In this document: one piece after another, positions 10,648 through 12,290 of the stretch
Numbering within the stretch: the first letter of the stretch is position 1
How the letters are laid out: each line of letters opens with the position of its first letter
DNA from: Escherichia coli
Lineage (GTDB): Bacteria; Pseudomonadota; Gammaproteobacteria; Enterobacterales; Enterobacteriaceae
Length of the DNA: 64,000 nt
Assembly (NCBI RefSeq): GCF_003334305.1
Contig: NZ_QOWS01000003.1
Direction: 5' to 3' (one strand)
Made by a program: the position numbers and the translations under genes
The notes under the pieces: generated by a model
Told to the model about the DNA's origin: nothing
The model's database searches: none
Seen by the model: the letters and a program-made list of their open reading frames with translations, nothing else

Positions 10648-10658
10648 CTTATTATAAT

Positions 10659-10691
10659 AAGCGCAAGGGTAAACGTTCCTTGCGCTTTCTT
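10659..10691 (+). terminator. Putative rho-independent terminator after uxuR
   Basis: Stem aagcgcaagg / ccttgcgctt followed by TTCTT, 12 nt after the uxuR stop. Confidence 0.5.
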
Positions 10692-10787
10692 AAATTAAGA
10701 AGTCGCAATGAGTATTACTTTGTAAATTGCAGGGTATTGTTTAAATATCTGTATAACCTGAATATTAGTACTCATTCTTCTCAGTGG

Positions 10788-11618
10788 CTATTTACCAATA
10801 TAATTCCATTCACCATTTTTTAATTCAAACAGTTCTGGAAGAGATGACGGTTGCAGAGTCATGCGTTTGAGTGGCGCATCTTCATCACCGGGGATAACGT
10901 TATATCCCATTTTTGCATGGATCTCCGCGGTACCGGGATAGGCTTCTATACCAATTATTGGGTCATTTCCCATTCCAATATTAGCATTAAGTAATGCGGC
11001 AAGGGCGAATCCGGAAGAATTTGCTACCCCTGAGACAGTTATTATCTGATCAATATAGATATCAATTCTTGGCTGCTCATTGGTCCATCTTTTTGCCTGA
11101 GAAACTGGAAGGGTTGAAATATATCCTATCGTGGTTCCGGCGTAACCTGGAACATTGCAACCAGGGCCTAATGTTATTTCATGAACTGTATAGTCCTCAA
11201 CAGGATCGAAAGGGCTCTTCATAAATAAATTTAGCCGTAAACCTTCTGCTAATTCTGTAGCAGCATGCGCCTTTTTACATATACCACCATATATTTCGTC
11301 TAAAGCTGAGGTGATTTTCAAGTTTCGATAGAGCATACGTCCTGTTGTTGTAATACCATCGGATTCTCTGCATGCTTCTGTCACATAATTAAATGGCCAG
11401 GACTCTTTACTAATATCAAGTTTTCTAATTTCGACAACGCTTTTTCCATCGTAATTATGGTTATTGCCACGAGCAAGAGGCAGAAGATAGATATTTTCCG
11501 TATCCAGGCGAGCTCGTTCATATTTACGTGTTAACTCATTGTCGACTTTTGGGTGATGAAGGAAGTGATTATCTGTAATAATTTGACTCTGAAGGGCATT
11601 GCTTAATGGCATAGACAT
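10788..11618 (-). CDS. yjiC: Uncharacterised protein YjiC
   Basis: 276-aa ORF; AT-rich coding sequence flanked by AT-rich non-coding DNA; same position as K-12 yjiC between uxuR and iraD. No recognisable domain by eye. Confidence 0.75.
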   Translation of the reverse strand: MSMPLSNALQSQIITDNHFLHHPKVDNELTRKYERARLDTENIYLLPLARGNNHNYDGKSVVEIRKLDISKESWPFNYVTEACRESDGITTTGRMLYRNLKITSALDEIYGGICKKAHAATELAEGLRLNLFMKSPFDPVEDYTVHEITLGPGCNVPGYAGTTIGYISTLPVSQAKRWTNEQPRIDIYIDQIITVSGVANSSGFALAALLNANIGMGNDPIIGIEAYPGTAEIHAKMGYNVIPGDEDAPLKRMTLQPSSLPELFELKNGEWNYIGK

Positions 11619-12290
11619 AATAGTTACCTTTTAGGAGTATTTCACTGATGTTTAGAAAAATAGATAAATTTTTCTGTAGTAAAAAGAGAAGTAAACAAAT
11701 GACATGCATGTTTCTGTTGTAGTGATATCAACTCTACACGGTGATATTAAAGGGTAGGAAACACTCTAAAGTATCAAAAAACGCTCATTTGAAATTATTT
11801 TCATGCAATTAAAAAGCATATCTTATTACTAATTGGAATTTGATGTTGCTATATTGATGTCTATATTAATAATGCCTGTGAATGGTATTTTTGATGTATT
11901 TGATATGTTATCAATTTATATTATTTACAAACTAATTGTTTCAAATAATACATGGCTGATTATGCGGAAATAAATAATTTCCCACCGGAATTAAGTAGCA
12001 GCGGTGACAAGTATTTTCATCTACGTAACTATTCGGAATATTCAGAATATACTAGCGGTTTTTTTTTGAGTTTGATGATTTTTATCAAATCATGACTTTT
12101 TTCCTGAAAAGTCAGTAGATATTCATAGGCAAGTAAGGTTTTATACTTTGCTGACAGGATTCAGGCCTGTCTCAGACTGACATGGATGTAATGAACAAAA
12201 GGGAATGGCTATGGAAAATGAGCATCAATACAGTGGTGCCCGGTGTTCAGGGCAAGCCGCATATGTTGCTAAACGTCAGGAGTGCGCAAA

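Follow-up and report, generated by a model that had tools for sequence, protein, structure and literature searches.

The closest described counterpart of the locus considered here is the iraD control region of Escherichia coli K-12, in which an ORF23'-'lacZ fusion was expressed, an ORF47'-'lacZ fusion was expressed without an effect on iraD, and a mechanism for translational coupling of idlP to iraD has been described (PMC5574718). A 33-amino-acid ytiC/ytiB protein (MPVNGIF...MRK) from the same region is among the new small proteins of PMC6001520. The spacer between yjiC and iraD is also promoter island 4554354_526, and is recorded, in a table that cites ChIP data, as H-NS-bound in K-12 (PMC3661553). 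Treatment with AZT results in a LexA-independent induction of genes within this spacer and on both sides of it, amounting to 260-fold for ytiC, 33-fold for ytiD, 18-fold for idlP, 14-fold for iraD, and 11-fold for yjiC (PMC11228462). With regard to yjiC itself, a transposon mutant of aEPEC was biofilm-deficient, this being a single mutant that was not complemented (PMC4100040).

We examined positions 10648..12290 of the window, by which we mean the whole 64-kb stretch of DNA that was analyzed. This region matches an E. coli chromosome at 100% identity, with annotation. The presence and offsets of the elements were determined here, and the behavior of the promoters, DnaA, CsrA, H-NS, and AZT is taken from the literature. 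The stretch from yjiC to iraD is a known AT-rich, H-NS-bound segment of the E. coli chromosome. Our interpretation of the whole, to which we assign a probability of roughly 0.7, is that it represents an old Escherichia-specific segment made up of the characterized iraD control region and the divergent gene yjiC, whose product would likely have a GNAT fold. The sole addition made by our analysis is this predicted acetyltransferase-like (GNAT) fold for YjiC, a protein confined to Escherichia. About one third of the E. coli K-12 genes are still without a function, and the predicted fold would supply a testable biochemical hypothesis, acyl-CoA binding, for one such gene.

Composition of the region and elements of the iraD control region

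The gene content and coordinates given in an earlier note on this DNA were reproduced (Table 1), with 672 bp separating yjiC from the ATG of iraD. The gene served by this spacer, iraD, lies just outside the region examined. The strong AT-richness that the note had described is also evident, the GC content of the region being 0.363 compared to a window mean of 0.514. In a sliding analysis, 0.19% of the 1643-bp segments in the 64 kb were equally AT-rich, and the minimum, at 10591, fell on the yjiC-iraD region. The GC content is 0.323 for the spacer and 0.401 for yjiC, compared to 0.541 for uxuR, 0.576 for uxuB, and 0.511 for hypT; GC3 is 0.303 for yjiC and 0.58–0.67 for the neighboring genes. 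The proposal that the spacer contains long A/T tracts and phased AT blocks holds in part. Homopolymeric A/T runs of at least 5 nt numbered 9, compared to 3.9 ± 1.8 in composition-matched shuffles (p ~0.007), and there was a modest AA/TT periodicity of 8.1 times the mean at 10.0 bp, compared to 3.7 ± 1.5 (p ~0.013), but mixed A/T runs of at least 8 nt were no more frequent in the spacer than expected from composition alone.

Table 1. Positions of features in and next to the region examined, numbered from the first nucleotide of the window
Feature	Position	Strand	Basis or remark
Hairpin GCGCAAGG...CCTTGCGC	10659..10687		Common to convergent uxuR and yjiC
UxuT (uxuR terminator RNA), candidate 3'-UTR small RNA	10664..10742	+	Published sequence, PMC10016265
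yjiC, 276 aa, DUF2686 (YjfZ/YjiC family)	10788..11618	-	Full-length Pfam match
TAGATAAATT, one mismatch from TCGATAAATT, the presumed H-NS high-affinity motif	11661..11670	+	Weak indicator only
iraD promoter P1: TTGATG, 16 nt, TATATT	11840..11874	+	Published TSS -417, equivalent to ~11874
ytiC/ytiB small ORF, 38 aa as annotated	11857..11973	+	RefSeq CDS
ytiD ('ORF47'), 47 aa	11952..12095	+	RefSeq CDS
iraD promoter P2, -10 element TATACT at 12142..12147	12142..12154	+	Published TSS -137, equivalent to ~12154
CsrA binding sites BS1-BS4, iraD leader	12157..12215	+	GGA at 12157, 12184, 12202, and 12213
DnaA box 'Box -81' (TTTTCCATA)	12210..12218	-	Exact match at -81 to the box of Sass et al.
idlP (ORF27), iraD leader peptide, 27 aa	12211..12294	+	RefSeq CDS and translation
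iraD, RssB anti-adaptor, 130 aa	12291..12683	+	NCBIfam NF010726, E 1.9e-90, above cutoff; annotation

The note had described the spacer as non-coding, which is incorrect for about 40% of its length; RefSeq places three small ORFs there (ytiC, ytiD, and idlP), and their translation has been reported in publications. Alternative starts for ytiC/ytiB would give 33 amino acids from the ATG at 11872, or 'ORF23' from the ATG at 11905. The iraD promoters had been predicted to lie within the spacer, and both published promoters do so. The published set of elements is present in its entirety, consisting of P1 at -417, P2 at -137, the box TTTTCCATA at -81, and four GGA sites in the leader. The hexamers of P1 were recovered independently, at 11840..11867, by a scan for the sigma70 consensus. 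The leader GGA sites, at -134, -107, -89, and -78 from the iraD ATG, agree with the four published CsrA sites, the first lying 3 nt from the P2 start, consistent with the published arrangement (PMC5574718). One further GGA is found at the iraD Shine-Dalgarno sequence, and the stop of the 27-codon ORF overlaps the iraD ATG, both as published.

The 672-bp spacer is the region, already characterized, that controls iraD and thereby the synthesis of an RpoS anti-adaptor. According to the literature, P1, a sigma70 promoter, acts in late log phase and upon DNA damage, and P2, recognized by sigma70 or sigmaS, is constitutive, with both responding to ppGpp. The small proteins YtiC and YtiD are encoded within the long P1 leader, and the box at -81 provides an operator for DnaA-ATP. 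The elements of the spacer are not new in themselves; the importance of the locus lies in its control of IraD, which stabilizes RpoS after DNA damage.

At the other end of yjiC, the hairpin between the convergent genes has a folding energy of -17.6 kcal/mol (z -4.3) on the + strand, where a U-rich tail follows, and of -16.2 kcal/mol (z -4.5) on the - strand, where the tail is AU-rich. It thus looks like a bidirectional intrinsic terminator for uxuR and yjiC. The printed 79-nt sequence of UxuT has an exact match in the window, overlapping the hairpin, and functional evidence for this RNA in the original description is limited (PMC10016265). A search of Rfam at permissive thresholds returned no family for UxuT, the two sub-threshold matches (a snoRNA and Mahella-1) being attributable to chance.

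Distribution and age of yjiC

The earlier note found no recognizable domain in YjiC, but the protein gives a full-length match to the Pfam family DUF2686 (PF10887; E 1.2e-151, residues 1-276 against positions 1-285 of the 285-position model). All five family members that we aligned match DUF2686, and the Pfam scan gives no other family. YjiC, which would be cytoplasmic, belongs to a two-member family, the second member being the paralogue YjfZ, which is 38% identical to YjiC, shares 71 invariant columns in the five-sequence alignment, and is likewise encoded by an AT-rich gene.

The family is restricted to Escherichia. An exhaustive phmmer search against 1.84 billion representative proteins yielded Escherichia fragments and no YjiC homologue outside the genus; this search also gave a 76-amino-acid match with an E of ~1e-3, and an 825-amino-acid low-complexity repeat protein (P0055) that we rejected as spurious. 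When 5.8 billion proteins were searched with a profile, only forms of YjfZ were added. A scan of 100,000 species genomes returned E. albertii and one locus assigned to another genus, with a sensitivity that must be limited given that E. coli itself was not returned; the apparent exception, a 'Collinsella' MAG contig, is mis-binned E. coli, as it shares 95.6% identity with the yjfZ locus of that species.

In E. albertii, yjiC occupies the same position between uxuR and iraD. Among 5426 complete E. coli genomes, 4882 carry the gene at 80% or more of its length, and it is absent from approximately 9–10%. The genomes lacking yjiC do not have an empty site. Their haplotype is a different one with an E. 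albertii-like iraD, the divergence amounting to about 22% over the iraD gene and its leader. Rare yjiC alleles are only 63–72% identical. This unusually deep allelic structure at yjiC-iraD bears on the use of yjiC as an E. coli-specific diagnostic marker.

The earlier note had read the AT-richness as the signature of horizontally acquired, H-NS-silenced DNA, and these data allow for an evaluation of whether such DNA, comprising yjiC and its surroundings, could be an islet of recent acquisition. The region has the composition of such an islet, well below the average (GC 36% compared to 51%, with a GC3 of 0.30). The spacer is flagged by several foreign-gene predictors as well as being H-NS-bound (table of PMC3661553), and yjiC is both missing from the 9–10% of genomes mentioned above and without relatives in other genera. 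However, the E. albertii orthologue is syntenic, and the dS between the two species is 0.82 for yjiC and 0.86 for the flanking uxuR, the similarity of these values indicating that yjiC has been inherited vertically since before the split of E. coli and E. albertii. The searches found no homologue outside Escherichia, and therefore no donor lineage. No phage copies were found, and matches labeled as plasmid are mis-labeled pieces of chromosome larger than 370 kb. At the locus we found none of the hallmarks of mobility, whether a tRNA gene, an integrase, an IS element, or direct repeats at the borders, and yjiC carries no phylogenetic signature of transfer. Three short imperfect inverted repeats in the AT-rich DNA were judged to be due to chance. 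Because the yjiC-less genomes have a different haplotype, absence of the gene there is no proof of a recent insertion elsewhere. We consequently consider recent acquisition improbable, and of the two parts of the earlier proposal, H-NS binding in K-12 stands and a horizontal origin, in the sense of a recent one, is not supported. An origin of yjiC de novo from AT-rich DNA was also judged unlikely, based on the ancient fold present in models of moderate confidence.

Selection on yjiC

A second possibility is that the yjiC ORF is in decay or without function, a silenced relic retained solely on account of its position beside the iraD control region, and that its predicted fold has no present function. 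The gene does evolve rapidly, with a dN/dS of 0.31–0.55, about ten times that of uxuR (0.02–0.07), and it is normally silenced. Disrupted copies are found in strain 3385 (a frameshift) and in ECZP248 (an IS1/IS3 insertion), truncated clusters are numerous and include a 257-amino-acid Shigella form, and the gene is missing altogether from about 9% of genomes. On the other hand, the reading frame is intact and dN/dS remains well below 1 across a dS of up to 0.87. A comparison of the two major alleles in E. coli gives an omega of approximately 0.2 for the C-terminal core. The wide retention of the gene, the maintenance of a paralogue with 71 invariant columns, the 11-fold induction by AZT, and the biofilm phenotype of the transposon mutant also speak against a relic, an explanation that we consider quite improbable. 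We conclude that yjiC is under purifying selection and that, based on its dN/dS, its wide retention, and the published biofilm-deficient mutant, it is a real gene.

Predicted fold and possible function of YjiC

The function of YjiC had been given as unknown in the earlier note. There is indeed no curated function beyond the DUF2686 assignment (NCBIfam, no families; PADLOC, no matches), but structure prediction narrows the question. The models of YjiC contain the GNAT core fold (b1-a1-a2-b2-b3-b4-a3-b5-a4-b6-b7), with the predicted GNAT-like part extending from about residue 113 to residue 276. Confidence is low for the first 50 residues of the protein, which also vary rapidly. The models have mean pLDDT values of 57 and 55, and were built from one shared alignment of 15 shallow sequences so that they are not independent. 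Similarity to GNAT proteins was not detected by sequence or profile in Pfam, NCBIfam, or the PDB profile search; searches of the PDB with the single sequence and with the profile gave only chance matches, the profile search having nothing at E<0.5 and no GNAT protein at E≤10, and a PHROGs search gave one non-significant match (E 0.19). Taken together, the models indicate that the C-terminal two thirds of YjiC most likely adopt the fold of GNAT acyl-CoA N-acyltransferases.

The pyrophosphate-binding loop of GNAT proteins, motif A, has the form Q/R-x-x-G-x-G/A and lies between b4 and a3. The putative equivalent in YjiC is N200-S-S-G203-F-A205 (N-A-L-G-F-I in YjfZ), in which N200 and G203 do not vary among the five aligned sequences. 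This motif is non-canonical, the first position not being Q or R and the last not being conserved. The loop at 196-200 is modeled with a pLDDT below 50, and we could not identify a catalytic residue in YjiC. Non-catalytic proteins with a GNAT fold exist, and YjiC may accordingly be a pseudo-enzyme that has retained the fold as a binding or regulatory protein with a metabolite or protein partner. Two considerations argue against this, namely that G203, which is strictly conserved, lies together with the AALLNA helix at the usual position for the CoA pyrophosphate, and that GNAT-fold proteins are mostly transferases. We view the pseudo-enzyme as a somewhat unlikely outcome.

GNAT-type toxins of toxin-antitoxin pairs, such as TacT, AtaT, and KacT, or proteins of conflict and defense could explain the rapid evolution and hyper-divergent alleles of yjiC. 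Toxins of the TacAT, AtaRT, and KacAT systems are about 150–180 amino acids in length and have an adjacent co-transcribed antitoxin, whereas YjiC with 276 amino acids is some 100 residues longer, and no adjacent co-oriented ORF is annotated. No gene next to yjiC resembles an antitoxin; uxuR converges on it from one side, and the iraD leader diverges from it on the other. Dozens of ordinary GNAT proteins score at least as well as the toxin matches, and yjiC is a single-copy chromosomal gene whose synteny is conserved across species. In view of the missing partner gene and the lack of PADLOC matches, both the toxin and the defense readings were rejected, and we find them very hard to credit.

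If YjiC is a GNAT enzyme, it might, we infer, bind acyl-CoA and catalyze acyl transfer to an amine acceptor, with the fast-evolving, low-confidence N-terminal part probably setting the partner or substrate. Extending this further, DUF2686 could be an unrecognized, Escherichia-restricted branch of the GNAT proteins, and YjiC an active acyltransferase, kept silent by H-NS, induced under replication stress along with the divergent ytiC-ytiD-idlP-iraD operon, and directed at a cellular target relevant to biofilm formation or stress tolerance, with the divergent alleles and fast N-terminus reflecting diversifying selection on target recognition. This extended scheme is speculative and, in all its parts together, unlikely.

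H-NS and the expression of yjiC

Regulation of iraD by H-NS was reportedly described by Battesti et al. in 2012. Within the spacer, TAGATAAATT differs by one mismatch from TCGATAAATT, which we take to be the high-affinity motif for H-NS; the site is a weak indicator only, because 7 sites with no more than one mismatch occur across the whole 64 kb. Binding of H-NS to the AT-rich, A-tract-phased DNA would result in low basal expression, and replication stress, as imposed by AZT, would de-repress transcription in both directions. The AT-rich segment would be an old, Escherichia-specific one with two divergently transcribed units, the iraD control region and yjiC. Co-regulation of yjiC and iraD is a correlation only, any link of YjiC to the iraD stress response being conjectural, and it identifies replication stress as a condition in which to seek a phenotype. 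In Shigella, inhibitors of RNA polymerase co-induce yjiC with virulence-plasmid genes.

A simple scan for the sigma70 consensus, used as a test for promoter-island character, gave 6 sites compared to 7.0 ± 3.0 in shuffled sequences, and thus no enrichment. The scan found no convincing yjiC promoter, the sites at 11914-11887 and 11645-11617 on the - strand being consensus matches only.

Comparison with known systems

The GNAT prediction for YjiC goes beyond the description of the DUF2686 / YjfZ-YjiC family (PF10887) in the libraries searched, which assign it neither a function nor a fold. The comparators for the predicted fold include the DfoC acyltransferase domain (5o7o), BH2621 (2qml), AAC(6') enzymes, the TacT/AtaT toxins, and the AHL synthases LasI/EsaI, among which no sub-family stands out. 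YjiC differs from the GNAT superfamily in being without detectable sequence-profile similarity, in its non-canonical motif A, and in an extra low-confidence stretch of approximately 110–140 N-terminal residues.

The spacer resembles H-NS-silenced promoter islands and xenogeneic DNA in being AT-rich, in its A-tract phasing near 10 bp, and in being bound by H-NS in K-12. It differs from promoter islands in having no excess of sigma70-like sites over shuffled sequences and, compared to the typical 'silent' islands, in containing at least two productive, physiologically regulated promoters. Unlike xenogeneic DNA, the yjiC segment is not a recent import, being syntenic in E. albertii.

The likeness to the K-12 iraD promoter and leader is closest. 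The window comes from a strain other than K-12, and the yjiC genes of the two share 94.9% nucleotide identity. The spacer is 97–100% identical, there is no difference of substance in the iraD region, and every published element is found at its published offset.

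Organization of the yjiC–iraD locus

The 2.4 kb around positions 10648-12290, which comprise yjiC and the AT-rich spacer upstream of iraD, are 100% identical to the chromosome of E. coli strain 2014C-4587, and at least 80% of that 2.4 kb is present in 4883 of 5426 complete E. coli genomes. Gene order was taken from the RefSeq annotation of the 2014C-4587 record (window coordinate = locus coordinate + 8899), which agrees with the gene names and coordinates that an earlier note had assigned from the sequence alone. The locus as a whole is already known; our analysis adds a fold hypothesis for the DUF2686 family, shows that the allelic structure at yjiC and iraD is unusually deep, and finds that the primers of one diagnostic paper were assigned to the wrong gene.

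The short spacer between uxuR and yjiC contains a strong bidirectional hairpin. A previously published candidate sRNA, UxuT (PMC10016265), matches the DNA exactly; it is located wholly inside the first 100 bp of the region and overlaps this uxuR/yjiC terminator hairpin. UxuT is oriented antisense to any yjiC 3' UTR read-through.

Features of the yjiC–iraD region (window coordinates; negative positions are counted from the iraD ATG)
Feature	Position	Strand	GC	Remark
uxuB			0.576	
uxuR	9874..10647	+	0.541	RefSeq
uxuR–yjiC spacer			0.329	
UxuT	10664..10742			candidate sRNA
yjiC	10788..11618	-	0.401	RefSeq
'YjfZ' reverse primer	11234..11255	+		1 mismatch
'YjfZ' forward primer	11326..11347	-		exact match
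'YjfZ' amplicon	11234..11347			114 bp
yjiC–iraD spacer	11619..12290		0.323	
P1 hexamers TTGATG-16-TATATT	11840..11867	+		directly upstream of 11874
38-aa ORF	11857..11973	+		RefSeq
ytiD	11952..12095	+		RefSeq
P2 -10 element TATACT	12142	+		found in window
GGA motifs	-134, -107, -89, -78, -12			found in window
DnaA box	12210..12218	-		exactly at -81
idlP	12211..12294	+		RefSeq
iraD	12291..12683	+		RefSeq
hypT	after iraD in listed order	-	0.511	RefSeq
iadA			0.565	

Base composition and evolutionary history of the segment

The marked AT-richness attributed to this DNA in comparison with its flanking genes was borne out, the GC content being 0.363 compared to 0.514 for the whole window. Equally AT-rich windows of 1643 bp make up only 0.19% of the 64 kb, with the minimum at the yjiC–iraD region, and GC3 is 0.303 for yjiC compared to 0.58–0.67 for neighbouring core genes. 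Other 500-bp patches with a GC content below 0.42 are found at 27201..27401, 44201..44401, 48101..48301, 49301..49401, and 18001. GC content also falls to 0.32 at 56301..56901 (~56.3-56.9 kb), nearly the level of the yjiC–iraD spacer.

The earlier note had also described long A/T tracts and phased AT blocks. The yjiC–iraD spacer contains 9 A or T homopolymers of length at least 5, compared to 3.9 ± 1.8 in composition-matched shuffles, and its AA/TT periodicity peaks at 10.0 bp with 8.1× the mean, compared to 3.7 ± 1.5 for the shuffles, of which ~1.3% reached this value. The homopolymer excess and the 10.0-bp peak therefore lend modest statistical support to the tracts and their phasing. Mixed A/T runs are no more frequent in the spacer than its composition predicts.

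The same AT-richness had been taken as the signature of horizontal acquisition, a reading that is unsupported for a recent event. E. albertii carries yjiC at the same site between uxuR and iraD, with 62–63% amino-acid identity, and synonymous divergence between the two species is 0.82 for yjiC, 0.86 for uxuR, and 0.81 for iraD. The shared position and this equality of dS indicate that yjiC was already at the site in the common ancestor of E. coli and E. albertii. No mobility hallmarks were found at the yjiC locus when annotation, flanking direct repeats, and tRNA were considered, nor did homologue searches identify a candidate donor lineage. yjiC is not a recent acquisition, and its AT-richness is best understood as an old feature of this H-NS-bound DNA, which is specific to the lineage and could have been gained by the ancestor either through transfer or through divergence beyond recognition. 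In the E. albertii locus (L003:3960..5822), iadA directly follows iraD with no hypT between them, and thus the right-hand border of the segment also differs between the species. Upstream of yjiH/yjiG, this locus additionally contains a large gene encoding pentapeptide repeats.

The iraD control region

Two transcription starts have been mapped for iraD, P1 at -417 and P2 at -137 relative to the ATG, together with a DnaA box, TTTTCCATA, at -81; iraD is repressed by DnaA-ATP, induced by AZT in a RIDA-dependent manner, and affected by SspA (Sass et al.). The leader contains four CsrA sites and a 27-codon ORF with a stop that overlaps the start of iraD, and CsrA represses iraD via the resulting translational coupling; leader ORF23 and ORF47 are expressed, yet dispensable for iraD expression (Park et al., PMC5574718). 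All of these published control elements are intact in the window strain, and the proposal that the spacer carries the iraD promoters was thus correct, although already in the literature.

The designation of the spacer as non-coding was partly wrong, because it holds the 38-aa ORF, ytiD, and idlP. A 33-aa protein (MPVNGIF...MRK) encoded between yjiC and iraD is listed as a new small protein (VanOrsdel et al., PMC6001520). In RNA-seq data published in 2024, no E. coli gene is induced more strongly by AZT than ytiC (260-fold), with ytiD induced 33-fold, idlP 18-fold, iraD 14-fold, and yjiC on the other strand 11-fold, LexA-independently throughout (PMC11228462). The spacer is marked as promoter island 4554354_526, H-NS-bound in K-12 (PMC3661553), and the H-NS part of the earlier interpretation accordingly agrees with published data. 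The spacer is already well understood from published work. One published study reportedly addresses H-NS regulation of IraD.

Allelic structure at yjiC and iraD

yjiC is absent from 512 of the 5426 complete E. coli genomes (~9%), in which the site is not empty, being occupied by a different haplotype (strain WP3-W18-ESBL-08, L002:3249..4470, equivalent to window 10648..12690). This haplotype has its own uxuR terminator, lacks P1 and ytiC, and carries a PEP-binding-protein pseudogene between iraD and hypT. Its ytiD–P2–idlP–iraD stretch has ~78% nucleotide identity to the common one, and the IraD that it encodes (127 aa) shares 77–78% identity with the common allele and 84–89% with its E. albertii counterpart. 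These comparisons suggest introgression or an ancient polymorphism.

Pairwise dN/dS was 0.31–0.55 for yjiC, 0.02–0.07 for uxuR, and 0.15–0.57 for iraD, the values for yjiC meaning purifying selection that is much weaker than on its neighbours. Two metagenome or genome loci (L011:4001-4822 and L013:4001-4831; alleles P0019 and P0020) encode YjiC proteins of 72% and 63% identity with dS of ~0.5, and in both loci uxuR and iraD resemble those of E. coli, at a dS of 0.07–0.11 from the window. Both limits of the divergence fall inside yjiC or at its ends, and the L011 gene is a mosaic, with its 3' third 90-97% identical and the rest 65-82%. Matches of 60–80% were found in 9 of the 4896 complete genomes with a yjiC match.

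The window and K-12 alleles of yjiC share 94.9% nucleotide and 92.4% amino-acid identity, with 14 of 24 non-synonymous differences falling in codons 1-50 (11469..11618). For these codons dN (0.132) exceeds dS (0.089), based on small counts (~14 non-synonymous and ~3 synonymous); beyond codon 50, omega is ~0.2. Codons 1-50 are a low-confidence segment of the structure model. Disrupted copies were found in ECZP248, where an IS1/IS3 insertion leaves only the 3' end of yjiC, and in strain 3385, where the gene is frameshifted (loci L010:487..2692 and L009:1537..2287). A 257-aa form of YjiC is common in Shigella flexneri.

The qPCR primers published as 'YjfZ', an E. coli-specific marker of water quality (PMC11057252), in fact target yjiC and have no site in yjfZ. 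Both lie inside yjiC and predict an amplicon of the published size; they gave no match to the K-12 yjfZ locus at up to 3 mismatches. The assay should miss the ~9-10% of complete E. coli genomes that lack yjiC.

The DUF2686 family and the predicted fold of YjiC

YjiC belongs over its full length to Pfam DUF2686 (E 1.2e-151). It was not matched by any NCBIfam, PADLOC, or PDB sequence entry, and PHROGs gave one non-significant match. The family has an extremely narrow distribution: against 1.84 billion representatives, exhaustive phmmer yielded Escherichia fragments only, and among 5.8 billion proteins a profile search recovered only those of E. coli, Shigella, and E. albertii, the paralogue YjfZ included. 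When 100,044 species genomes were scanned, the family was recovered from E. albertii and from a single contig, really E. coli yjfZ, of a 'Collinsella sp.' MAG (L015, JAIJJM010000835.1, 1283 bp), which is 95.6% identical to the K-12 yjfZ locus and almost certainly comes from Escherichia through mis-binning or contamination. By tblastn, yjiC had no match in phages and matched only mis-labelled chromosome pieces among "plasmids". K-12 YjfZ (L007:14682-15476) is 38% identical to YjiC, has 71 invariant columns in common with it, and is likewise AT-rich.

From an alignment of 15 family sequences, AlphaFold2 gave a model with a mean pLDDT of 57 and a pTM of 0.63, with residues 141–276 mostly at 70–90 and residues 1–50 and 70–118 below 50. 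Foldseek against AFDB50 recovered DUF2686 itself and then N-acetyltransferases only, the best match being a Xenorhabdus protein (E 2e-5). No sequence profile linked DUF2686 to GNATs in Pfam scans or a PDB-sequence profile search. The model points to a GNAT fold for YjiC, with a probability of roughly three in four; an acyl-CoA-dependent transferase activity is a more tentative proposal, plausible but unproven.

Published work has shown that the spacer integrates ppGpp, DnaA-ATP/RIDA, SspA, CsrA, and H-NS to set the level of IraD and hence RpoS stability. yjiC, divergently transcribed from the same AT-rich, H-NS-bound DNA, would be de-repressed under the same conditions, consistent with its induction by AZT (PMC11228462), and YjiC might then act as a GNAT-type acyltransferase on a target. 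In Shigella, RNA polymerase inhibitors induce yjiC along with genes of the virulence plasmid, and one aEPEC yjiC transposon mutant is biofilm-deficient, a weak hint as to function (PMC4100040).

A conserved block, T-V-x-G-V-x-N-x-x-G-F-x-x-A-A-L-L-N-A, is located at the β4–α3 junction of the YjiC model. In GNAT enzymes this junction is the CoA pyrophosphate site and bears the canonical motif Q/R-x-x-G-x-G/A, from which the YjiC block deviates.
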